Positions 1,804 through 51,408 of a DNA stretch of 64,000 nt are shown one piece after another. The notes beneath the pieces are model-generated. The model did no database searches. It was not told where the DNA came from and saw nothing but the letters and a program-made list of their open reading frames with translations. The DNA comes from an uncultured delta proteobacterium. GTDB taxonomy: Bacteria > Desulfobacterota > Binatia > UBA9968. The position numbers were made by a program, and so were the translations under genes. Position 1 is the stretch's first letter, and every line of letters begins with the position of its first letter. Where the stretch lies: positions 384,001 to 448,000 of the forward strand of contig CAVYTU010000015.1 in assembly GCA_963771465.1 (NCBI GenBank). Direction: 5' to 3'.

Positions 1804-2538
1804 TCAAGCGAAGCCGGCGATCACTTTATTTTGCGCTTTGAGCAAATCTTTAATCCCGCCCTGGGCGATCTCGGCCATGCGCTCCATTTGTTTCTTGGTA
1901 AATGGCGCACTTTCCGCCGTACCTTGGACTTCGATGAATTTCCCCGAACCGGTCATCACGAAGTTCATGTCGACGTCGGCCTTGCTGTCTTCTTCATAAC
2001 AAAGATCCAAGAAAATTTTCCCGTCGACGATGCCGATGCTCACGGCCGCGACCGAATCTTTCAGCGGCGTGACATTGATCATGCCGCGCTGGAGCCAGCC
2101 GCCCACCGCTTCCGCGAGTGCGATATAGGCGCCGGTGATCGCCGCCGTGCGCGTGCCACCGTCGGCTTGAATCACGTCGCAATCGATCCAAACCGTACGC
2201 TCCCCGAGACTTTTCAAGTCCGCGATGGCTCGCAAACTGCGGCCGATCAGGCGTTGGATCTCGTGCGTCCGGCCGCCCACTTTTCCGCGCGACGACTCGC
2301 GGCCGATGCGCTGCTGCGACGACCCCGGCAACATGCCATACTCGGCGGTAATCCAGCCCTTGCCGCTATTGCGCAAAAACGGCGGCACCCGCTCTTCGAG
2401 CTTCGCCGTGCAAATAACTCTCGTATCGCCCATCTCGATCAACACCGACCCGTCCGCCGTCTTGATATAACTCGGCGTGATTTTCAAAGTTCTTAATTGG
2501 TTCGGTTTCCGTCCGTCAGTTCGCAATTTTTTGATCAT
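1804..2538 (-). CDS. rph: Ribonuclease PH
   Basis: [39 protein letters not shown] and EVQGTAE motifs; start placed at [10 protein letters not shown]. Confidence 0.97.
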
Positions 2539-13656: not shown

Positions 13657-14997
13657 CTAGGCCGCGCGGCTGACTGCCGCTTTAGGTTGCATTGGAGCCG
13701 TCGGCAGCAAGATCGTGAAAGTTGTCCCTTCGCCAAGTTCGCTTTCCACGGCGACGCTGCCACCATGACTTTCCACGATGGTTTTAACGATGAAAAGCCC
13801 CAGTCCGGTGCCTTCGATGTTCGCAGCACCATCGAGCCGCCGGAATTCAGAAAATAGGCTGGAGATCTCGTCCTTGGCTACCCCAATGCCGGTATCCTTC
13901 ACTTTGATGGCGATATTTTTCTTGGTCATTGCCGAAGTCACCGTGATCTGGCCGCCGGTTGGTGTAAACTTGATGGCGTTGCTAACCAAGTTCCACAATA
14001 CGCGCTGCAATTGATCGAAGTCGCCCAAGATCGGTTCGAGATTCGCGTCAAGTTTGAGCGCCAGTATTTGCTCTTTCTCCTGGGCCGTGACCATCTGTTG
14101 TAGAACAACTTCTTCGGCGATGACATTCATCTGAACCAGATCTTTTGCGCCATCCAACTTCATTGTTTCTAGTTTCGAAACATCTAAAAAGTCGGTGATC
14201 ATTTTGGTGATGCGGTCGACATTTTTGCGAATGCATTCGAGACACGACAGCCTTTCCTTGGGAGTCGAGTAGCTAATGGACGGCTCGGCGAGTAACTCAG
14301 CATAGCCGAGGATAACGTTGAGCGGCGTCTTGATGTCGTGCGCCAGGGCAGACACCAATTGACGCTTCAACCTTACCGCTGCTTCGATCTTCTCGGTTCG
14401 TCTCTTTTCCCGTTTCACCTGACTCGCCAGATGACCATAAAAGATAGAAATACCGAACATGAACGGCACGCGAAATAGAAAATTTGGGCTGATCGTAGAT
14501 ATAGCTGCGCCGTTCGGGGAGACGAACAGGACAAATACCAAGCTCAGCAGCACGCAGAGCACGCCAATTTGAACGAGGTGCTCGCCAATCGCCGCGATGA
14601 AAACGCAAAAAAAGAAAAGAATAAGCAAATCCCACGGCACTTCCTGCGAAGTCGTAATGGCGCCAAGAATGAGAATTGAATCGACAACCAGGAGTCCCGG
14701 TTCAATCAAGCGTCGTTCGAAATATGTCTCGGGAATACGCTGGAGCAAAACCGCGGACGTGAGACACGTTAACACCAAAAGCGCCGGCAGCGGATCGGTT
14801 ACATTATGTTCATGCGAAACGATAACCAGATAAGAAGTGGCGATTGCAACCAGCCACTGGACGGCGATAATTGCATTTCTATCCTCGCGCAGTGCGCTAC
14901 TTTCGCCGTTCTCCGAGCCCACTATATTTGCCCACCACGAAGTTATCCTGAAGGTTCCGTTCAACGTCAGCCGTTCTAACAAAGCTCTACTTAGCAA
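13657..14997 (-). CDS. Membrane sensor histidine kinase (multi-TM, HisKA, HATPase_c)
   Basis: AHDIKTPL, NLVSNAIKFT, DTGIG and GTGLGL motifs; about six hydrophobic helices. Confidence 0.9.
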   Translation of the reverse strand: MLSRALLERLTLNGTFRITSWWANIVGSENGESSALREDRNAIIAVQWLVAIATSYLVIVSHEHNVTDPLPALLVLTCLTSAVLLQRIPETYFERRLIEPGLLVVDSILILGAITTSQEVPWDLLILFFFCVFIAAIGEHLVQIGVLCVLLSLVFVLFVSPNGAAISTISPNFLFRVPFMFGISIFYGHLASQVKREKRRTEKIEAAVRLKRQLVSALAHDIKTPLNVILGYAELLAEPSISYSTPKERLSCLECIRKNVDRITKMITDFLDVSKLETMKLDGAKDLVQMNVIAEEVVLQQMVTAQEKEQILALKLDANLEPILGDFDQLQRVLWNLVSNAIKFTPTGGQITVTSAMTKKNIAIKVKDTGIGVAKDEISSLFSEFRRLDGAANIEGTGLGLFIVKTIVESHGGSVAVESELGEGTTFTILLPTAPMQPKAAVSRAA

Positions 14998-37283: not shown

Positions 37284-37315
37284 TTGACAAACTTTTAAGT
37301 TTCGATTATACGAAC
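37284..37315 (+). promoter_or_regulatory. sigma70-type promoter with an overlapping palindromic operator
   Basis: TTGACA-17 nt-TATACG; TTCG-ATTATA-CGAA dyad across the -10 element. Confidence 0.65.
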
Positions 37316-37425: not shown

Positions 37426-38367
37426 ATGAAATCAAAGTTTCAACGGTCACTAACGGGCGCAGTTATGGTTGCAGTCGCGCTGTGGATAACTTCTTACAAG
37501 CAGGCGCTGGCGCAAGAAAAAGTCGTTATCGCAATCCAACCCACGGTGGCCAGCGATGAAATGTTGAGTAAAGCGAAACCGCTGCAAAATTTTCTCGAAA
37601 AAAGCCTTGGCGCTCGCACCAAGGTCGAAATTTACGTCCCAACCAGTTACGCAGCCGTGGTCGAGTCGCTGCGCTTCGGTCACGCTCAGGTCGCTTTCAT
37701 GTCAGCCTGGCCGTCTCAATTGGCGGTACGGCTCGGTGGCGCCGAAGTCGCATTGGCTGAGATTCGCCAAGTGCTGCACGGCAAGGAAAAAGTCGAGGCG
37801 CCTTACTACTATTCCAATTGGGTCGTAGCGCCGGACTCGCCGTACAAGGATCTTCAATCGCTCAAAGGTAAGAGCGCCTGCTTTCCCAGCCCAATCTCTA
37901 CTTCCGGTTTCGTTGCGCCGATGGGACGCATGGTCGAGCTAAACCTGCTCCCGGCGGCGGACGGCAAGGAAGCGGATCCTAAAGCATTTTTCAAAGAGGT
38001 GTTGTTCGGCGGCGGCTACGGCCAATGCTGGCAAGCGCTCAAACAAGGCCAAGTCGATACCACCATAATCGCCGGAGACGTCCCGGAGAAACTCTATAAT
38101 GAAGTCCTCGGCGCCACCCGTACCATCGAAACCCAAGGCCCGATCCCGTCTCATGCAGTGGTGCTCAGCAAGGAACTGAAAGACCCGCTACGCTCTCGGG
38201 TGATTCAAAGCATCGGTAAACTGAGCGCGCCTGAGCAGCGCGACCTGATGAAGACTTTTATATCGAGTCTGTTTGTCGGCTTTAAGCCGACCAATGCCAA
38301 CGAGCATCTCGGTGCGTTACAGAAATACTTAAAGCTCGCCAACCTCAAATTCACGGAGCGCTTGTGA
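37426..38367 (+). CDS. PhnD-like phosphate/phosphonate ABC substrate-binding protein
   Basis: Signal peptide; SYAAVVESLR.G, Y.S..VV..DSP...L..LKGK, STSG and PIPSH motifs. Confidence 0.85.
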   Translation: MKSKFQRSLTGAVMVAVALWITSYKQALAQEKVVIAIQPTVASDEMLSKAKPLQNFLEKSLGARTKVEIYVPTSYAAVVESLRFGHAQVAFMSAWPSQLAVRLGGAEVALAEIRQVLHGKEKVEAPYYYSNWVVAPDSPYKDLQSLKGKSACFPSPISTSGFVAPMGRMVELNLLPAADGKEADPKAFFKEVLFGGGYGQCWQALKQGQVDTTIIAGDVPEKLYNEVLGATRTIETQGPIPSHAVVLSKELKDPLRSRVIQSIGKLSAPEQRDLMKTFISSLFVGFKPTNANEHLGALQKYLKLANLKFTERL

Positions 38368-39113
38368 CCGCTAACGGCGATGCGCCGATTGCGCTCAGCG
38401 CCGAGCAAGTCTGGTATTCCTATCCGCATCACGACGCGGTGTTACGAAACGTTTCGCTGTCCATTCCGGCGGGAAAACACACCGTCATCATGGGGCCCTC
38501 GGGCACCGGCAAAACCACCTTGCTGCGGGTTCTCGCGGGCATCTTAAAACCAAGCCGCGGCCGCATCACGGTATTCGACCAGCCGGTTGACGGTCGCGGC
38601 CAGCGCCAGCTGAGTCCGTTGATTGGCTACATTCCACAACAGCTGGGATTGGTGCGTAACCTTTCCGCCCTCGATAACGTTCTAATGGGCGCGTTGGGCC
38701 GGCTCGGCGATACCAAATCGCTTTTGGGTCTGTTCCCTCGGGCTGAAATCGACGCCGCCCACGCGGCGCTGGATATGATGGGCATCGACCACAAGAGCGA
38801 GGCGCAAGTCTTTCACCTAAGCGGCGGCGAACGGCAGCGGGTCGCGATCGCGCGCACGCTGTTGCAACGGCCGCGCATCGTCATCGCCGACGAGTTCGCC
38901 TCCGACCTCGATTTAGCGATGGCCTATGAGATCCTCGACCGCATCCGCAACGCCGCTGAAAGAGAAAACATCACCTTCATCATGAGCATGCACCGTTTCG
39001 GTCTGGCGCGAAGATTCGGCGACGATGTCCTCGCCCTGGAAGATGGCGCCATCGTCCGCGGCTTCATCGGCAACGAAATACTCGAGACCGCCCAAGAGGC
39101 CGCACCTTTGTGA
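38364..39113 (+). CDS. PhnC-like ABC ATP-binding protein
   Basis: GPSGTGKT, LV.NLSALDNVL.G.LG, LSGGERQR and ADEF motifs. Confidence 0.85.
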   Translation: MTANGDAPIALSAEQVWYSYPHHDAVLRNVSLSIPAGKHTVIMGPSGTGKTTLLRVLAGILKPSRGRITVFDQPVDGRGQRQLSPLIGYIPQQLGLVRNLSALDNVLMGALGRLGDTKSLLGLFPRAEIDAAHAALDMMGIDHKSEAQVFHLSGGERQRVAIARTLLQRPRIVIADEFASDLDLAMAYEILDRIRNAAERENITFIMSMHRFGLARRFGDDVLALEDGAIVRGFIGNEILETAQEAAPL

Positions 39114-39877
39114 TATCCAAGCTTTTCTTGCCGATAACCACAGCGTTATTTTTGCTCGCGGTGCTCGCCCACTTGGGGTTTTTCGAGTGGGACCGGTTGG
39201 CGCGCGGGTTTCGCAATTTAAGAATTCTCGGCGCCGAGATGGTGCCGCCGGATGTCTCGATCTTGCCAACGGCGGGGGCGGCGCTGTGGGAAACCGTCGA
39301 GATGTCTTTCGCCGGAACGCTGCTCGGCTTCATGGCGTCGCTGCCGCTCAGCATTCTCGCCACCCGTCGCTTATTTTCCGACTGGGTGTCGCGGCTAGCG
39401 CGCTTCGTCGCCGCCGGCATTCGCACCATCCCGGTGCTGCTGTGGGCAATCGTCTTTGTCATTCTCGTCGGCCTCGGCCCATTGGCCGGCACCTTCGGTA
39501 TTGCCGCCTACACGGTCGGTTACTTGGCGAAAATCTACGCCGATCTCTTCGAAGGCACCGACCCCGAAATCATGGAAGCCGTACAAAGCACCGGCGCTTC
39601 GAAGTTGCAGTTGGTGCGTTACGTGATCGTTCCTGAAACCGCCAATGCGATACTGGCGCAAGTGCTATTTATGCTCGAATACAACATCCGCGCCTCATCG
39701 ATTCTCGGCTTCGTCGGCGCCGGCGGCCTCGGCTTGGTCATTCAAATCTATTTGCAGAATCTGAATTATCGCCGTTTGGCCACGGTGCTGTTACTGGTTT
39801 TGGTGATCGTTCTGCTCATGGACGGCATGAGCGCGTGGCTGCGAAAAAGGTTTCTGTTGTCAAGCCAGGGAACCTAA
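39110..39877 (+). CDS. PhnE-like ABC permease
   Basis: ETVEMS..GT, RTIP.L.WA..FV..VGLG and EYNIRASSILGFVGAGG motifs. Confidence 0.87.
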   Translation: MISKLFLPITTALFLLAVLAHLGFFEWDRLARGFRNLRILGAEMVPPDVSILPTAGAALWETVEMSFAGTLLGFMASLPLSILATRRLFSDWVSRLARFVAAGIRTIPVLLWAIVFVILVGLGPLAGTFGIAAYTVGYLAKIYADLFEGTDPEIMEAVQSTGASKLQLVRYVIVPETANAILAQVLFMLEYNIRASSILGFVGAGGLGLVIQIYLQNLNYRRLATVLLLVLVIVLLMDGMSAWLRKRFLLSSQGT

Positions 39878-41868: not shown

Positions 41869-42096
41869 ATGCCAAAGCGCGAGCAACGGACGGAAGGCGA
41901 GCCCGTTACAACGGTGATTCGCGACAAGAATTCGCTTCGCTGCGACTGCGGTAATCTTTTAGCCCGTCTCGTTCCTGGCGGTGTGGAGCTTAAATGTCGC
42001 CGCTGTAAACGCCAGGTCGTGATTCCGCTATCGGGCGGCAGCAACTTCGCAGAAAACCATCTCAACCGTTGGGAAAGGGCGACTGATAAATCTTAA
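41869..42096 (+). CDS. Small Cys4 zinc-ribbon protein, Mu Com-like
   Basis: LRCDCGNLLARL...GVELKCRRCKR matches the Com-family pattern RC..C.KLLA.....EIKC.RC; ATG directly abuts the FTR1 stop. Confidence 0.7.
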   Translation: MPKREQRTEGEPVTTVIRDKNSLRCDCGNLLARLVPGGVELKCRRCKRQVVIPLSGGSNFAENHLNRWERATDKS

Positions 42097-42158
42097 TTGG
42101 TCATCATTCTAGCATCTTAGACTCTTAAATTCGTATGTGATAATTTATTTTGTTAGTG

Positions 42159-42190
42159 TTGACAAATATTCAATATTTAAATATACGAAC
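42159..42190 (+). promoter_or_regulatory. sigma70-type promoter of the TonB operon with an operator-like palindrome
   Basis: TTGACA-17 nt-TATACG(AAC); perfect dyad AAATATT-C-AATATTT at 42164-42178. Confidence 0.65.
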
Positions 42191-42218
42191 TTAGTCAGCG
42201 GCCAGCGGTCTTGAATCC

Positions 42219-42268
42219 AGAGCCCGGCGCACCGTCCATAGTGGGCGGCGCTCAGGGCTCTTTATTTT
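42219..42268 (+). terminator. Leader terminator/attenuator upstream of exbB
   Basis: AGAGCCC-GGCG-CA-CCGTCCA-TAG-TGGGCGG-CGCT-CA-GGGCTCT followed by TTATTTT, located downstream of the promoter. Confidence 0.7.
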
Positions 42269-42319
42269 ATGGAGGTTCAGAATGTCCGCAGAGTTCAAGA
42301 AAGGTTTGGTTCTATAGTC

Positions 42320-42928
42320 ATGACCCAGGTTGTTTCCATCATTATCAAAGGCGGGATCGTCATGATCCCGCTGCTCGCTTGCTCCTTGATCTCCCTGGCG
42401 CTCACCATCGAGCGCATCATGTTTTGGACCAAACTGAAGTCCAAAGAGGTGCTCAGTCAAATTCTAACACTAGTAGAAAACGGTGAATTCGAGCAGGCGC
42501 TAAAGTTAGGAAAATCATCCGGACAGCCCATCGCGCGAGTTTTGTCTGCCGGCATCGCCCACCGCAATCCCGCGCCGGCCAAGGCGATGGAAGCCGCCGC
42601 CCAGGCAGAGATCCCCGTGCTCAAAAGCCGCCTCGGCATTCTCGATACCATCGTTACGCTTGCCCCTCTGCTCGGATTGCTCGGCACGGTAGTAGGCATG
42701 ATCGGTTCCTTCGACGTGATGTCCGAAGCGGGCCTGGGGCAACCGCATGCCGTTACCGGCGGTGTTGCCGAAGCGCTCATCGCAACCGCCACCGGATTGC
42801 TGATCGCGATTCTGACCTTAATCGCCTACAACTTTTTCACGGCTCGGGCCGAACGGGAGATGGATCAAATGGAACACTTCAGCTCATCGCTGGAGCTGCT
42901 GCTGCAGGAACATGTGGGGAAACATTGA
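42320..42928 (+). CDS. exbB: MotA/TolQ/ExbB proton channel
   Basis: GGIVMIPL, APLLGLLGTV.GMI and GVAEALIATA.GL motifs; start uncertain (42269, 42282 or 42320). Confidence 0.9.
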   Translation: MTQVVSIIIKGGIVMIPLLACSLISLALTIERIMFWTKLKSKEVLSQILTLVENGEFEQALKLGKSSGQPIARVLSAGIAHRNPAPAKAMEAAAQAEIPVLKSRLGILDTIVTLAPLLGLLGTVVGMIGSFDVMSEAGLGQPHAVTGGVAEALIATATGLLIAILTLIAYNFFTARAEREMDQMEHFSSSLELLLQEHVGKH

Positions 42929-43340
42929 TGCGCATCCAACGCCGCAGCTCGAAGAAGGCGCGCATCGAGATCATCCCGATGATCGACACGATTTTTTTCT
43001 TTGGTCTTTTTTATGATTTCGACTTTATCGATGTCTCAATTCAAAGGCGTGCCGGTTAATCTGCCCAAAGCGGCATCCGGCCAACAAGCCCCAGCCGAAA
43101 GCGCCGCGGTATCGATCACCAGAGAAGCGCAGATTTTTCTCGACAAACAGGCGGTCGATAAATCGGCATTGAACGATTTGCTGCGCCAAAAAATTGCCAA
43201 GAACCCCGATCTCCTAGTGGTCATCAACGCCGACGACGGCGTCGAGCACGGGCGCGTTGTTGAAATCATGGATGTCGCCCGCAGACGCCAACGTGGCCAA
43301 ACTTGCGATTGCCGTAAAGCCAAGGGAGCCAAAGCGATGA
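42928..43340 (+). CDS. exbD: ExbD/TolR, two frameshifts
   Basis: MRIQRR..KARIEIIPMIDTIFF, then LVFFMI...VNLPKA...VVINAD..V.HG.VV..MD, ending LAIAVKPREPKR* overlapping the tonB ATG. Confidence 0.85.
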
Positions 43341-44170
43341 ACCATCAGTGGCTCGTGTCGTCATTTACCGTCTCATCGTTGATTCACTTGAGCCTGATTC
43401 CACTGGCAGCGCTGATCATGCACACAAAGCCGCTCAAGCCGATCACAGTTCCCATCGAACTGGTTGACGTTCCTAACATCGAGCAACCCGAGAAAGTCGT
43501 GGTCGCGCCGCTGCCTTCGGCGCCAAATCCCCAGCGGAAAAATATTTCCGCGCCCAAATTACTATCCAAGCCGGTATTGGAAAAAAGTTTCGTAGCGCCG
43601 ACGGGCAACACTAAGGACGAAGTTAAACCAGAGAAACCGCGCGAAGAAACCCCGCAGCTTGCATCATTGCCGGACAAGGCCGGCGACAGCAACGCCGGCT
43701 GGAATGCCGGCAGTCGTGTCGCAGAGGCTGAAGGCAGCGCCGCCGGCGCAGGCAGTCTCTTCGGTAACGGCGATGTCGGGGTCGTTGGCGGCAGCGGCGT
43801 CGAAGGCGGTGGCGGCGGAAAAGGGTCAGCTGGATTGGGTAGAGGTATTAAAGGTGACGGCACCGGCGGAGGCGTTGGCGGCGGAGAAGCACTCTCGGGC
43901 ATGGCTCGGCCACTCGGTGGCTATCAAGTCAAGCCGCGCTATCCGGAGTCGGCCAAGCGAGCTGGTGCTCAAGGCGTAACAACGCTACGCGTGCGCGTGC
44001 TTGAGAACGGTCGGGTTGGCGATGTGCTTGTCGAACAGTCCGCCGGTTTTCGCGATCTTGATTTCGCCGCAGTGGATGCGGTCAAGAAGTGGCTCTTCGA
44101 ACCGGCGCGGCGCGGTAAGGACGCAGTGTCGGTCTGGGTGATGCTGCCGGTGAAGTTCGAGCTACACTAG
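43337..44170 (+). CDS. tonB: Energy transducer TonB
   Basis: S.LIH anchor helix, Pro/Gly-rich linker, and P.YPE.A...G.QG and SAG...LD.AA.DAV..W.FEPA motifs. Confidence 0.9.
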   Translation: MNHQWLVSSFTVSSLIHLSLIPLAALIMHTKPLKPITVPIELVDVPNIEQPEKVVVAPLPSAPNPQRKNISAPKLLSKPVLEKSFVAPTGNTKDEVKPEKPREETPQLASLPDKAGDSNAGWNAGSRVAEAEGSAAGAGSLFGNGDVGVVGGSGVEGGGGGKGSAGLGRGIKGDGTGGGVGGGEALSGMARPLGGYQVKPRYPESAKRAGAQGVTTLRVRVLENGRVGDVLVEQSAGFRDLDFAAVDAVKKWLFEPARRGKDAVSVWVMLPVKFELH

Positions 44171-44178
44171 GAAATCCA

Positions 44179-44370
44179 ATGGGACAAACGCTTGTGAATC
44201 ACACGGCTAAACGATCGACCACTGCGGCTGTAGCCGCATCCAACGGAAAAAAGCCGCGCATCGAAAGCAATCATCTTTTTCAAGGCGGTAGCGAGATCGT
44301 CATCGTGCACCAAAACGAGGAGTACAACTTGCGCATCACCAGAAACGGCAAACTAATCTTGACGAAATAA
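44179..44370 (+). CDS. hemP: Hemin uptake protein HemP/HmuP
   Basis: I.S..LF.G..EI.I.H....Y.LRITRNGKLILTK signature. Confidence 0.9.
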   Translation: MGQTLVNHTAKRSTTAAVAASNGKKPRIESNHLFQGGSEIVIVHQNEEYNLRITRNGKLILTK

Positions 44371-44420: not shown

Positions 44421-44448
44421 GAAAACATTAGCTCCCTTGGAGGAACGC

Positions 44449-46596
44449 ATGAGTCGACAACAGAAACGCGCGGATGAAAGAAAACGGCACAAGACAGCTT
44501 TGCAAAAAATCTGTCTTGCGGCGGGCGAAGGCGTCGGCCGGGCGGTAGCTTTTTCTTTCGCACTAGCCAGCAACGCTTTCGCCGCGGAGCCGAAGAAAGA
44601 AGAGACGTTCGACCTGCCGCCGGTGGTGGTGGAAGACCAGGGCAACTCCTACGTTGTGCCCGAATCCTCTCTATCCAAGTTCCCGGTACCGCTGAAAGAC
44701 ACCCCGCAATCGATCACTATCGTGCCGGAGAAACTCATCCAAGAACAAGCCGGCACAACATTACGCGATGCGCTGCGCAACGTGCCTGGAATTACCGCCA
44801 CAGCCGGCGAAGGCGGCGGTGCTCAAGGTGATGTTTTCATCCTGCGCGGGTTCAACGCACGCAACGATATGTTCATCGATGGCGTGCGTGATTCCGGCTC
44901 CTATTTTCGTGATTCTTTTAACTTCGATGCAGTCGAAGTATTAAAGGGACCTTCGTCGACTTTCTTTGGCCGCGGCTCTACCGGCGGCATTATCAACCAG
45001 GTCAGCAAAGGTCTCCGCCTCGACCCCAGTTACAACGGTATTTTCAGCGGCGGAGCCGGCCCGCTCTTCCGCGGCACTGTCGATGTCAACCAACCGCTCT
45101 CGCAAGTGCTGCCCAACGCCGCCCTCCGTATCAATCTCATGGCGCACGGTGATGATGTCGTGGGACGTGACAAGATCGAACTCAGAAGGCAGGGTTTTGC
45201 GCCGTCGATCGCCTTCGGTCTCGGAACGCCGACACAGATTACTTTGAGCTACCTGCTCCAACACGAAGACAATATTCCGGATTACGGTTTTCCTTACATA
45301 AATGGCGCGCCACTGCGCACCGATCGCGACACCTTTTATGGGTTGACCAAAGAGGATCATGAAAAGACGTTGGTAAACGTCGGTACGCTCCGGTTGGATC
45401 ACCGCTTCAATGACATATTCAACCTGCGGAACACGCTGCGGTACAGCCACGTTGACCGGGATTCGGCGGTAACTAACGCTACCGTCGTTCTTCCCAACAC
45501 GATTACCCGAAGCCGGCCTCAACGCGACACTCAGGAAAGCATTCTCAGCAACCAAACGGATCTAACCGCCAAGTTTGACACGTTTGGCTTCAAACATACT
45601 GCTACCACGGGCCTCGAAGTATCTCGCGAAACTTTCGATCTCGTACGCTGGGCGAGTACCGGACCTAATACAACCATAAACCATCCCAACAACAACGCAT
45701 TACCGAACCCGAAGGTGCTAGCTGCAGATTCCGACACGCGCGCTATCGGCTTTGGCTACTTTGCCGCGGATCAGATCAAGTTGAATCAATATTTTGACAT
45801 CGTCGGCGGCGTCCGCTGGGACTACTTCGATACCGACGTCAAGGATGACTTCCTTGATGACAGGCGAAAACAGGTCGACAAGGCGTGGAGTTATCGAGGC
45901 GGATTGGTTTTCCATCCTACGCCATCCCAAAGTTATTATTTCTCCTACGGCACTTCGTTCAACCCTTCCGCCGAAGGCATTGCGCTGAGCCCCGCCACCA
46001 ACGGCACGCCCCCGGAAAAGAATCGGATTTTTGAAGTCGGCGCAAAGATCGAATTCTTCGAAGGCGCGCTCAATCTTCAGAGTGCGGTATTCCGAATCGA
46101 TAAGACCAACGCACGCACGCCAAACCCGCTTGACGATACCTTGCCGAACGTAGTGACGGGTAAACAGCGTTCGCAGGGCTTCGAAATTGGCGCAACGGGC
46201 CGTGTGCTTCCCGGATTGAATGTATTCGGCGGATATACGTTCCTCGATACAGAAATTCTCAAAGATACCGTCACCGCTAATATTGGAAACGAAATCCAAA
46301 ACGTTCCCAAACACAGCGCGACCCTTTGGACCACCTACGACTTCCTCGAGAAATGGCAGGTCGGCGGTGGCCCGACATACGTCGGCAGTCGCTACTCGAA
46401 CAATGCCAACGCCAACCGAGTGCCTGGTTTCGTCCGTTGGGATTCGACGGTCGCCTATCAGATCACAAAAAATATTCAGCTGCGGGTCAACGCGATCAAT
46501 CTCACGAACCAGCTCTATTTCGATAGCATCTCTGGATCGAAAGCCGTGCCGGCTGCCGGGCGCACGATTCTCGGCAGCGCGAGTTTCAACTTCTAG
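44449..46596 (+). CDS. TonB-dependent siderophore receptor (Fiu/PiuA-like)
   Basis: [43 protein letters not shown] and YGTSFNPS motifs; C-terminal Phe. Confidence 0.92.
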
Positions 46597-47291: not shown

Positions 47292-47823
47292 CCTGAATCT
47301 GCGATTGAAAATAATCTCGGTAGTTGGCCCCTTGCTGGTTGCCGGCTGCACCACCACCGCGCCGTTGGATCAATCGCCTTCGCGCGTTTCCGTCGCCTTC
47401 ATCGAACCGGAGAAGTTCACCGACGCGCGCCGCGCTGAATTGGAGCCGACTTCTTCGGGAGTTCTGCGCGAGCTGGAAAAATTTCTGATCGAGGCCGGCG
47501 CGCGCTACGTGCCCGAAAACATGCAACTGAACATCCGGATTACCAACGTCGATCTGGCCGGCGACTTCGAATTGTTTCGCGGTCCACAAGCGGAACAAGT
47601 GCGCATAAACAAAGGTCTCTACCCGCCACGCATCGCGCTTGAGTTCGAGGTCGTCGATAGCGCGATGAAGGTGATTAAAACCGGCAAACGCGACATCACC
47701 GACATCAATTACCAATTACGCAGCGTTTACCCGAGAGAAGACTACGTGAGATACGAAAAAGACATCTTGCGCGACTGGCTGCGCGCGGAATTTGGCGAGC
47801 TTAAGAGCCGCATCGCAGGTTAA
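47278..47823 (+). CDS. DUF3016-like lipoprotein
   Basis: LVAGC lipobox; V.F.EPEKFTD, IT.VDLAG, YPPRI and YEK..L.DW motifs; start uncertain. Confidence 0.75.
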
Positions 47824-47836
47824 ACCGAGACGGAGA

Positions 47837-49674
47837 ATGCCGACCATGAAACTGCTGCACAAAATAATCTTCTGGAGCCACCTGCTCGCCGGCGTGGTCG
47901 GCGGTTTGGTGATTTTCATCATGTCGTTCACCGGCGTAATCCTGATGTACGAAGCGCAGATCACGGAATTTATCGAGCGCGACACGCGGCGAGTGATTCC
48001 GTCCACCGACGGCAAGCGTTTGGGTTACGACGAGTTGATCGCTAAAGTGCGCGCCGCGAATCCTAAGGCGCGCCCGGCAATGATCATGGTGAAGGCCGAT
48101 CCAGCTGCCTCGGTGGCGGTCAATCTGGGCCGCGAGAATACTGTTTTCGTAAATCCCTACAACGGCGAGTTTTTGGGAGGTCAGTCAGCCACTTACAATT
48201 TCATGCGCGGCGTCGTCGATTGGCACCGCTGGCTTGGCACCGAAGGAGAAGGCCGCGCCACCGCTCGTGCGATTACCGGCGCATGCAATTTGGCGTTTTT
48301 CTGGCTCGCCGTTACCGGAGTCTACCTTTGGTGGCCGCGCAGCTGGCAATGGCGCGGATTGAAAATGAGCCTGCTGTTCAGCCCTCGCTTGCGCGGCAAA
48401 GCGCGCGACTGGAACTGGCACAACGTCATCGGATTTTGGTCTTCATCGGTGCTGGTCGTGCTCACGCTGACGGCCGCAGTCATGTCTTATCCGTGGGCAA
48501 ATGATTTGTTGTATACGCTTACGGGCAGCGAACCGCCGCGCCGGTCCGAAGGGCCCGGCGGGCTCTCGTTGCTCAGGAAGCGCGGGCACGCGATCAACGC
48601 GGCGAAGCGCGCGCGGCCGCCTCAGCCGCGAGCTTCGATGTTTTATTGACGCGCGCACAAGAGCAGGTCCCCGGTTGGGAGATGATCATGTTGCGCTTAC
48701 CACCGCGCGGCGATGGACCGGTCACCGTTTCGATCCAGGGGCCCGATGCCTTTCATCGTTTCGAGCGCTCACAACTCACGCTCAATCGCACCACCGGAGA
48801 CGTGGTGAAATGGGAACCCTATGCCAACAACAGCACAGGGCGAAAATTGCGCACTTGGGTGCGCGCGCTTCATACCGGCGAAGCGTTTGGATTTATCGGC
48901 CAGACCGTCGCCGGACTCGCTTCTCTCGGCGGTTGTTTTCTCGTCTGGACCGGGTTGGCCATGGCCTGGCGCCGCTTTCGTTCTTGGCGCCGCACACCGA
49001 AAGAATTTACTGTTGAGGAGTCAGTGATGAATGCAAATACCGATCAAATCAATTTTCCCAATCCACATCAGCCCGAGACCGAAAGCGTTGATGGCGGACT
49101 CGCATACTCATTGAGCGAAGCCCAAACCGTCGCGCCCAACGGTGCCAACGGTCACGCCCGCGCGGTGCAGGATCTCGCGCGCGAGCGAGCGACGGCGCCG
49201 TTCAACGGCGAGTCGGTGTTGATTCTTTACGGCACCGTCACCGGCAACTCCGAGGCGCTCGCCAAGAAATTGGCCAACGCACTGCGCCCGACCGGACTCA
49301 CTGCACGTGTTAGCGATATGGCTCACTGTCAACCGGACGTACTCAAGCAAGCGAACTGCGTCCTGGTCGTGGCGAGCACCTACGGCGACGGCGAACCGCC
49401 CGACGACGCAGCGCCGTTTTGGCAAGCCATCGTGCAAGGCAACGGCCTAGATTTGACCGGCGTAAAATATTCCGTACTGGCACTCGGCAACACCACCTAT
49501 GATCACTTCTGCAAGTGCGGCCGTGACTTCGATGCCGCCCTTGAGCGCCACGGCGCCATCCGAATCTATCCGCGCGTCGATTGCGACGTGGATTACGATG
49601 ACCAAGCCGGACGCTGGATCGAGGGCGTGCTCGCCACGTTGCGGCAGGAGCAGAACCATTCCGCATCGGCGTAA
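47837..49674 (+). CDS. PepSY-associated TM-helix protein (PiuB-like) fused to a flavodoxin domain; frameshift(s) near 48560-48650
   Basis: FWSHL..G, VNPY.GE, WHRWL, WH.VIG.W and LHTGE motifs; then YGTVTGNSE, STYGDGEPP and LGNTTY.HFC. Confidence 0.8.
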
Positions 49675-50743: not shown

Positions 50744-50890
50744 CGTCATGGCCGGACTTGATCCGGCCATCCATCCTCGGAATAAATCCGAGGACAGACT
50801 CTTGTGCTATCAGTTATGCGCGGAATCGTTCCGCTTATCCACGCTATTCATAACCCGTGGATGCCCAGATCCCGGGATCAAATCCTGGGA
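50744..50890. repeat. REP-like palindromic element between convergent operons
   Basis: CGTCATGGCCGGACTTGATCCGGCCATCCA hairpin, with a degenerate partner GTGGATGCCC...GGGATCAAATCC about 85 bp away. Confidence 0.6.
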
Positions 50891-50930
50891 AGCGCGGGAA
50901 TGGTGGAAGAGAAAGTAAGAATTAGCGTAG

Positions 50931-51408
50931 CTAACTTTTCTTAAAAATCTGCTGCGCCAGGTAGTTCTCGTAGCCGACTTCTTTAATCTGGTGTTCTGGG
51001 TTTCAATCCAGTCGATGTGGCGCTCTTCGTCGACCACAATGTGTTCGAGCAGCTCCCGGGTCGCGTCGTCGTGAGCGTCGAGGCAGGCTTTTATTCCCGG
51101 CTTGAGAACCGTCAAAGCCGCTTGTTCAAGTCCCAGATCGTTATCCAATTGCTGCTTGACGGTCGACCCGACGGAGATTTTGTCGTAAGCTGAGAGATTG
51201 GGCACGCCCTCTAGAAAAAGAATCCGTTCAATGAGTTGATCAGCATGTTTCATTTCGTCAATCGATTCATTCCAGGCGTGCTCCGCGAGCACAGTGTAGC
51301 CCCAGTTTTTGCACATCTTGGAGTGAATGAAGTATTGATTGATGCCGGTGAGCTCTTTGCGCAGCACTTCGTTCAAGACTTTGATAATTTCAGGTGCTTA
51401 CCCTTCAT
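50931..51408 (-). CDS. bfr: Bacterioferritin, two frameshifts
   Basis: ELTGINQYFIH, ESIDEMKHAD.LIERILFLEG and DEERHIDW; start MKGK at 51408; end ENYLAQQIFKKS*. Confidence 0.9.

Follow-up and report, generated by a model that had tools for sequence, protein, structure and literature searches.

What is known of iron control in bacteria is mostly repression by Fur or DtxR proteins together with small RNAs (sRNAs), and the Com fold is to our knowledge known only as a phage curiosity. In phage Mu, com immediately precedes mom, with which it overlaps. Com is reported to bind a motif next to a translation-inhibiting structure, its consensus from systematic evolution of ligands by exponential enrichment (SELEX) is NGAGNNCC(N)2-3GAGNNCCNN and the bound unit is 5'-CC(N)2-3GAG-3' (PMC6483171). 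The nearest cellular system by mechanism is HutP, which a review describes as binding NAG triplet repeats with few spacer bases and destabilising a terminator; in that review the word 'zinc' is absent and 'iron' occurs once (PMC12591593). In this paper we describe a locus of an uncultured delta proteobacterium of the Binatia (GCA_963771465.1, contig CAVYTU010000015.1, positions 384,001 to 448,000; these 64,000 nucleotides are the window in what follows). Here an open reading frame (ORF) for a Com-like zinc-ribbon protein of 75 amino acids (aa) ends an operon with an FTR1 permease gene and is followed by a short RNA leader element and the exbB operon.

An initial annotation of the window had proposed that this protein antiterminates or unmasks the iron-uptake genes downstream. 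It had described Mu Com as a binder of short repeats beside a hairpin, with which PMC6483171 agrees. Its interpretation is overall partly supported by our analysis. The best-supported explanation, to which we give somewhat better than even credence, is that the Com-like protein would be the reader of the RNA element. Beyond what had been annotated, we find that the motif occurs in several copies and in several phyla, and that it also precedes ferritin genes.

The leader element and its conservation

The Com-like ORF and the next gene are separated by a 223-nucleotide (nt) spacer with an A+T-rich stretch, a promoter-like site, four hexamers, a hairpin, a T-tract and a GGAGG site in that order (Table 1). 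This is the anatomy which the initial annotation had read from the sequence, including the identity of the last repeat with the 5' arm of the hairpin, and sequence comparison places the element in iron-gene leaders as had been supposed. For the 78-nt leader the predicted folding energy is -34.8 kcal/mol (z = -2.9), a value that was equalled by 3 of 200 shuffled sequences. With a G+C-rich hairpin directly before a U-tract it has the form of an intrinsic terminator. In anatomy, which is all that is compared here, it also resembles the protein-dependent attenuation leaders of the HutP or TRAP type, in which short repeats overlap the 5' arm of the terminator and a candidate regulator gene lies directly upstream. 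The hairpin was not listed by a simple consensus terminator scan, presumably because its stem is long and interrupted.

For the conservation of the element we searched 20 loci around homologues of the small ORF, from the genus and the family, with a leader 13-mer and up to two mismatches, and found 19 copies in 18 of these loci. The aligned single-stranded part is nearly invariant, reading A-GCGGCCAG[C/A]G[G/A]TC-NN-GAA[T/C]CCAGAGCCC, and the DNA flanking this conserved stretch of ~28 nt does not align across the 19 copies. The top of the hairpin has a different inner sequence in each of the 19 copies, all of which fold at -19 to -32 kcal/mol, and compensatory changes are seen at two of the nine base-stem pairs. 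A small hairpin within the first two repeats was considered and dropped, since GGTC changes to GATC in relatives without compensation.

The covariance model R1 was built from these 19 genus-level copies. It finds no second copy in the window at E <= 10 and none in the genome, and the element is thus single-copy here; in relatives there is a second copy about 10 kb downstream. Its single occurrence in the genome, the covariance match of 72.7 bits and the recurrence of the 13-mer indicate more than chance similarity. Rfam 15 gives two chance-level matches in the window, the better one with 19.2 bits against a gathering score of 50, and none at the motif in six related loci. As the initial annotation had supposed, we found no published description of the element or the module in the literature, which was looked at mainly at abstract level. 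We consider it very probable that the element is a real, so far undescribed cis-regulatory RNA of iron genes. Three of the genomes used in this study are unpublished (G005, G076 and G079); G005 contributes one of the 19 rows of R1, G079 two of the 36 copies described below, and all three are counted in the family survey. Our conclusions do not depend on them.

From relatives we extracted 36 copies of the motif for a survey of leaders. A T-rich tail follows 28 of them, a Shine-Dalgarno-like site lies within 30 nt past the motif in 26, and a TTGACA-17-TATACG promoter precedes it by a few bases in 13. Copies also sit just ahead of genes on the same strand, and extra copies are found far from any Com-like or FTR1 gene, with sigma-70- or sigma-54-like promoters of their own. 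Within the genus the motif stands 10-150 nt past the Com-like ORF regardless of which gene comes next (ExbB, DUF6662, CCP_MauG-like or DUF4198). The genes that follow the copies include a small ORF with exbB-exbD-tonB-hemP-receptor, a porin-like gene with a signal peptide, a cupredoxin, hemP-like and DUF6662 genes, a second zinc-ribbon gene and ferritin-like genes. The position close to ribosome-binding sites, ahead of genes and behind promoters suggests that the element is a leader, either at the 5' end of a transcript or between cistrons.

The ferritin-type copies lack the U-tract, and have a TGGCAC-N5-GTGCT site of sigma-54 type upstream, a second hairpin downstream and, close to the ribosome-binding site, one more stretch of GCCAGCG type. 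In the Myxococcaceae the repeats read GAGGCC-C-GAGGCC-CTT-GAGCCC-A-GCGCCC, which is invariant in 15 species. They are followed by a covarying hairpin, by a second hairpin that runs into GGAGGAC and by the ATG of a TonB-dependent receptor gene, again with no U-tract. The repeats are therefore joined to terminators in Binatia and to hairpins touching the ribosome-binding site in Myxococcaceae. One sequence platform combined with expression platforms that differ by phylum is typical of a site that a trans-acting factor reads, and the element is not just a terminator belonging to one operon.

Two Com-like genes 2 kb apart, with motif copies around each, were seen in one related locus (L051, G014:C4, 13965-16465). 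One of these copies precedes the second Com-like gene by 62 nt and may point to autoregulation.

Co-occurrence with the Com-like protein and iron genes

The distribution of motif and protein was compared in a family sample of 90 genomes, in which the protein was called at E below 1e-15. The motif was found in 53 genomes and the protein in 53; 51 have both, 35 have neither, and two each have only the motif (G008, with a weak match, and G109) or only the protein (G028, with a degenerate copy, and G108). The motif-bearing genomes often carry 2-4 copies on one contig inside iron gene clusters. In a class-wide sample of 151 genomes the protein was found in 53 and the motif in 18, with both in 17, the motif only in one, the protein only in 36 and neither in 97. 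Hence 17 of the 18 motif-bearing genomes have the protein, and one of the 98 protein-less genomes has the motif. R1 misses divergent forms because it was trained on one genus. The family and class counts are inflated by relatedness and by physical linkage.

Stronger evidence than these genome counts comes, as far as sequence can tell, from the enrichment of the motif next to the gene in 80 loci that were fetched by the protein alone. The names in this set include Candidatus Binatia, metagenome-assembled genomes labelled 'delta proteobacterium', Corallococcus, Myxococcus, Sorangium, Haliangium, Nannocystaceae, Kofleriaceae, Anaeromyxobacteraceae, Acidobacteriota, Rokubacteria, Eisenbacteria and others. 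We defined a zone from -40 to +300 nt of the ORF stop on the same strand, and an R1 match starts in this zone in 40 of the 80 loci. For R1 matches below 35 bits, 18 fall in the zone, which makes up ~2.5 % of the searched space, and three elsewhere. A degenerate pattern of two half-sites is found in the zone in 48 loci against eight hits elsewhere, three of which are genuine extra copies. The union of R1 and pattern, made by hand, places a motif within about 320 nt downstream of the gene in 63 of the 80 loci. With the few exceptions named, these surveys show at sequence level that the motif is restricted to genomes carrying the protein and is placed in iron-gene leaders.

Judged by its sequence, the protein is a remote Com-like relative outside the curated Com family. 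It has 179 homologues in a word-indexed search, many of them named 'phage FluMu protein Com' by the Joint Genome Institute, and an exhaustive profile search gives 564 cluster representatives at E <= 1e-10 and 1139 at E <= 1e-3. The core sequence, LRCxCGSLLARLVPGGVELKCRRCKR, hardly varies. An alignment of 33 sequences from several phyla has 16 invariant columns including the four cysteines (Cys25, Cys27, Cys43 and Cys46 in the window), and all 33 have CxC as their first knuckle, where Mu Com has one residue more. Comparing our alignment A4 with Mu Com by hhalign gives a probability of 88 % and an E-value of 2.8e-6 over 33 columns of the ribbon with 36 % identity. The nearest Atlas clusters are labelled 'Com family', and the cluster at rank 16 carries PF10122.

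The initial annotation had suggested a hidden Markov model search against the Mu-like Com family, and this failed: even with the threshold relaxed to E <= 10, Pfam PF10122 (Zn_ribbon_Com) gives no match to the 75-aa protein, against 36.8 bits and E 2.7e-9 for Mu Com as the positive control. Nor does it match anything in the Pfam and NCBIfam libraries at that threshold. A profile search of the sequences in PDB gave only chance-level zinc-ribbon matches, the best being uS14 at E 0.35. The AlphaFold model has a three-stranded ribbon with a predicted local distance difference test (pLDDT) score of 81-85 over residues 31-50 and a mean pLDDT of 63.5. Four members of 116-127 aa (P0121, P0122, P0213 and P0223) match the profile in two stretches, which suggests tandem double zinc ribbons. 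Around the gene we found no prophage with a downstream mom-type gene; the neighbours are DtxR-family, ABC transporter, FTR1, ExbB, TonB and receptor genes. What stands of the proposed Com-like host protein is thus remote ribbon homology outside a prophage.

The Com-like ORF abuts the FTR1 stop in the window and, by ORF layout, in 16 of the 20 genus-level loci. In the wider set FTR1 lies directly upstream in only 21 of 80 loci, and tblastn finds none within 4 kb in 56, in most of which the motif still follows the small ORF. Outside Binatia the neighbours include TonB-dependent receptors with HemS/ChuX or HmuY, non-ribosomal peptide synthetases, Fur or DtxR-family regulators, FeoB, multicopper oxidase, imelysin, DUF6662 and ApbE. 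The expectation that non-phage homologues would have iron genes as neighbours is thereby borne out across phyla, and the low share of loci with FTR1 argues against a role tied to the FTR1 permease itself.

In the window the operon of the small ORF comprises an ABC (ATP-binding cassette) transporter and a cytochrome c-FTR1 fusion permease, which matches the NCBIfam EfeU/Ftr1 model at 7e-35, under the curated cutoff. The DtxR-family gene is divergent from it. The exbB operon encodes in order ExbB, ExbD, TonB, a hemP-like protein, a TonB-dependent receptor, a PKHD-type hydroxylase, a DUF3016 protein and a PepSY_TM-flavodoxin protein. The GGAGG site had been assigned to exbB; the site is present, but it serves an 11-codon decayed ORF and not exbB directly, the start of which is most likely the ATG at 42320. 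This remnant ends 2 nt ahead of the exbB ATG. Compared with the conserved ORF of ~70 aa in relatives it has lost ~180 nt of its interior, and no second copy of the ~70-aa ORF was found elsewhere in the genome. Three unrelated families of small ORFs (~65-100 aa) stand between the leader and exbB or other targets, differing by relative, and have no Pfam match at E <= 0.01. A ferritin-like gene of another paralogue group is found 8 kb downstream (50810-51376, minus strand), and no motif was found upstream of it. The motif-bearing ferritin paralogue of relatives was not found in this genome, the best tblastn matches being 29-32 % identical.

Contigs from RNA libraries were compared with the window, bearing in mind that DNA may be present in such libraries, that a contig is no proof of a transcript and that parts without coverage are uninformative. 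Run X1, a soil metatranscriptome, has contigs identical to the window, including one of 505 nt (42046-42550, 0 differences) which runs from the last part of the small ORF through promoter, motif and hairpin into the beginning of exbB, and extends more than 31 nt past the hairpin on each side. At most, this hints weakly at RNA that continues through the hairpin and at transcription from upstream that reaches the leader. The shortened small ORF is matched exactly by one RNA-library contig, and runs X2, X3 and X5 contain only short or divergent pieces of the window. An X1 contig differs from the window by a T inserted after 42991, a C inserted after 43000 and a deletion of one base at 43283. By frame arithmetic these changes would yield exbD and tonB as two genes, the arrangement seen in relatives. 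The PepSY_TM-flavodoxin gene is also split in two in the window (47792-49674), and either assembly indels or genuine decay could account for both frame breaks.

Table 1. Positions of the features discussed, in window coordinates unless a related locus is named.
Feature	Positions	Strand	Details
DtxR-family iron-dependent repressor gene, 221 aa	36614-37279	-	Pfam Fe_dep_repr_C 6e-29, Fe_dep_repress 2.8e-12, FeoA 1.5e-13
Promoter-like site of the ABC/FTR1/Com-like operon	37284-37314	+	TTGACA, 17 nt palindromic spacer, TATACG-AA
ABC transporter	37426-39877	+	same operon as FTR1 and Com-like ORF
Cytochrome c-FTR1 fusion permease gene, 677 aa	39835-41868	+	Pfam FTR1 2.8e-28, Cytochrom_C 3.1e-13
Com-like zinc-ribbon ORF, 75 aa, CxC...CxxC	41869-42096	+	ATG immediately 3' of FTR1 TAA
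Promoter-like site of the leader	42159-42187	+	TTGACA 42159-42164, 17-nt spacer, TATACG 42182-42187; 7-1-7 palindrome 42164-42178
Conserved RNA motif (model R1)	42195-42267	+	cmsearch 72.7 bits, E 4.8e-17
Four G[A/C]R-NYC hexamers	42198-42225	+	GCGGCC 42198-42203, GCGGTC 42205-42210, GAATCC 42213-42218, GAGCCC 42220-42225
Terminator-like hairpin	42219-42261	+	5' arm is the fourth repeat (AGAGCCC)
T-tract (U-tract) after hairpin	42261-42268	+	from the sequence
GGAGG ribosome-binding site	42271-42275	+	from the sequence
11-codon ORF	42282-42317	+	remnant of the ~70-aa ORF preceding exbB in relatives
exbB, 202 aa from ATG 42320	42320-42928	+	Pfam MotA_ExbB 1.5e-32
exbD and tonB, read as a 44-aa piece and one 389-aa ORF	42925-44170	+	Pfam ExbD 3.6e-18, TonB_C 1e-19 on one ORF; separate genes in relatives
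hemP-like gene	44179-44370	+	Pfam hemP 3.6e-18
TonB-dependent receptor gene	44437-46596	+	Pfam Plug, TonB_dep_Rec_b-barrel
Small ORF between leader and exbB or other target, locus L005 (relative)	1932-2144		example
Small ORF between leader and exbB or other target, locus L139 (relative)	2154-2465	-	example
Small ORF between leader and exbB or other target, locus L149 (relative)	14037-14300	-	example
Ferritin-type motif copy, locus L051	4998-5067	-	
Ferritin-type motif copy, locus L052	15403-15472	+	
Ferritin-type motif copy, locus L055	4713-4782	-	
Ferritin-type motif copies, loci L143 and L144			

Mechanism and competing explanations

The leader and the FTR1 operon share one type of promoter next to the DtxR-family gene, in agreement with the second tier under DtxR that had been proposed. 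The pattern TTGAC[AT]A-N13-17-[TA]A[TA]ACGAA has three matches in the 6.9-Mb genome, two of which, the only good ones, are the sites at 37284 and 42159, both with a palindromic spacer. These two sites are probably operators of one iron repressor, for which the adjacent DtxR-family gene would be the obvious candidate. A consensus promoter scan does not list the leader promoter, since the rule of the scanner demands T as the sixth base of the second hexamer; we infer this promoter from its conservation in relatives.

We favour, with slight preference over an even chance, a reading in which the protein would bind the repeats and open the hairpin, protein and element being two parts of one post-transcriptional module of iron genes. 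The protein would be made from the last cistron of the cytochrome c-FTR1 operon in this lineage. The leader would start about 42194 from its own promoter, and would probably also be reached by read-through from the FTR1 operon. While the protein is absent, the hairpin would form and most transcripts would end at 42268. Once it has accumulated, it would bind the repeats and keep the fourth one single-stranded, so that RNA polymerase continues into the genes of the TonB system. Release of the repressor would thus lead to the production of both protein and leader, and to read-through only once the protein is present. The presence of one rare promoter type with a palindromic spacer in both places beside the DtxR-family gene suggests that the module forms a feed-forward second tier. 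The direction, antitermination, is suggested by the way repeat 4 overlaps the 5' arm, and by the Mu precedent. We infer that it is this protein which binds, that the hairpin is opened and not stabilised, and the position of the transcription start.

Several observations weigh against this reading. Most motif copies adjoin the protein gene and related genomes are not independent, so the co-occurrence may largely mirror the presence or absence of one locus. G109, which is 96 % complete, has a good motif and no match to the protein, and in 17 of the 80 loci, including three of Sorangium, neither R1 nor the degenerate pattern finds a motif beside the gene. The likeness to Com has its weak points in the missing PF10122 match, in a first knuckle that is CxC and not CxxC and in the weak structural model, for which Foldseek finds nothing in PDB at E <= 0.001. 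The repeat unit is a hexamer with CC-N1-GAG spacing and not the CC(N)2-3GAG of Mu, and GAG is replaced by GCG or GAA in many copies. Binding might just as well stabilise the hairpin or block the ribosome, and to judge from the ferritin leaders the effect may differ by target.

Could the element be read by something else, or do its work elsewhere? One alternative, which we regard as unlikely, is a cis-regulatory leader that responds to another protein, an ion or a metabolite, the small protein being for instance an accessory or metal-handling partner of FTR1. The junction with FTR1 in the window and at genus level, the 21 wider loci with FTR1 directly upstream and a Cys4 site that could bind iron would fit such a partner, whereas the motif follows the small ORF in most of the 56 loci where tblastn finds no FTR1 within 4 kb. 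Short repeats with one hairpin are moreover unlike known ligand-binding riboswitches, no Rfam family matches, and the repeats are similar to the Com SELEX motif. Quite unlikely in our view is that the element also or only acts as a trans-acting sRNA of the iron regulon of ~75 nt, RyhB-like or derived from a 3' untranslated region (UTR), arising from the promoter or by mRNA processing, with the Com-like gene incidental or a chaperone. A promoter, ~75 nt and a terminator have the classic shape of an sRNA gene, copies right after a last cistron resemble 3'-UTR sRNAs, and several copies per genome and the iron-gene context would also suit it. But the ribosome-binding sites close behind 26 of the 36 copies and the copies just ahead of same-strand genes are those of a leader, the ferritin-type and Myxococcaceae copies lack the U-tract, and an invariant stretch of ~28 nt would be long for a seed.

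The simplest explanation would be that the hairpin is merely the intrinsic terminator of the FTR1 operon, with repeats and promoter-like site as chance or lineage-specific filler. The hairpin with its U-tract does make a good terminator, it lies downstream of the last gene of the operon, and the promoter is not flagged by the consensus scanner. This explanation is nevertheless highly improbable and already contradicted by flank conservation, locus linkage and the leader survey: the 28-nt 5' flank is nearly invariant while the remaining intergenic DNA cannot be aligned, extra copies with promoters of their own lie at a distance from Com-like and FTR1 genes, and the repeats are kept across phyla where there is no terminator.

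Binding of the repeats by the Com-like protein could also be part of a wider scheme, which we put forward only as a speculative and doubtful extension. A Cys4 mini-protein of 60-75 aa, with a metal site reporting iron or redox state, would bind the leader hexamers in a bacterial logic like that of iron-responsive elements (IRE) and iron regulatory proteins (IRP). Uptake genes would be switched on by antitermination or by unmasking of the ribosome-binding site, the ferritin paralogue would respond in the opposite way, and the scheme would be common to Binatia, Myxococcota, Acidobacteriota and further phyla.

Relation to known regulatory systems

The recurrence of the element beside uptake and storage genes in several phyla points to an undescribed RNA-level iron switch. 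Should the Com-like protein indeed read it, iron genes would come under a third kind of control, exerted by a dedicated RNA-binding mini-protein through a cis element of its own in TonB-system, receptor, porin and ferritin leaders. The Com fold would then also have a role in the cell, in soil phyla that are difficult to work with. Being short and sharply defined, and having no entry in Rfam, the element can become a new family there and serve for mapping a regulon. The system is testable in culturable carriers such as Corallococcus, and in vitro with the 75-aa protein and a 75-nt RNA.

The likeness to Com and mom of phage Mu lies in several features. Both proteins are small Cys4 zinc ribbons with a basic second knuckle (KCRRCKR here, RCPRCKR in Mu), and in both systems the gene stands directly upstream of the RNA thought to be its target. 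In both, short GAG/CC-type repeats lie beside a hairpin, which blocks expression in Mu (PMC6483171) and would do so here. The repeats of the window have a Mu flavour with CC-N-GAG and GAG-NCC, one base shorter than the Mu unit as given there. The differences are that the locus is found here on a host chromosome with iron genes and no prophage, that the first knuckle is CxC and no Pfam model matches, that there are four tandem hexamers and several targets in many genomes, and that the hairpin in this lineage is an intrinsic terminator, whereas in Mu it masks the start codon.

With HutP the locus shares the order of regulator gene first and then a terminator in the intercistronic region (PMC12591593). 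HutP differs in being an unrelated hexameric alpha/beta protein that is activated by histidine and Mg2+, and in the sequence of its repeats.

Iron-responsive sRNAs such as RyhB and PrrF are short transcripts with a terminator and an iron-regulated promoter, sometimes in several copies. Our element differs from them in standing directly before a ribosome-binding site and a gene, and in occurring also without a terminator. The IRE/IRP system of eukaryotes, with IRE-like binding by bacterial aconitase, is similar in that one RNA element is found in the leaders of both uptake and ferritin genes. The IRE hairpin has a CAGUGN loop, whereas here repeats are combined with a hairpin of variable loop and the candidate protein is another one. 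One element leading both uptake and storage genes suggests a single RNA-binding regulator.

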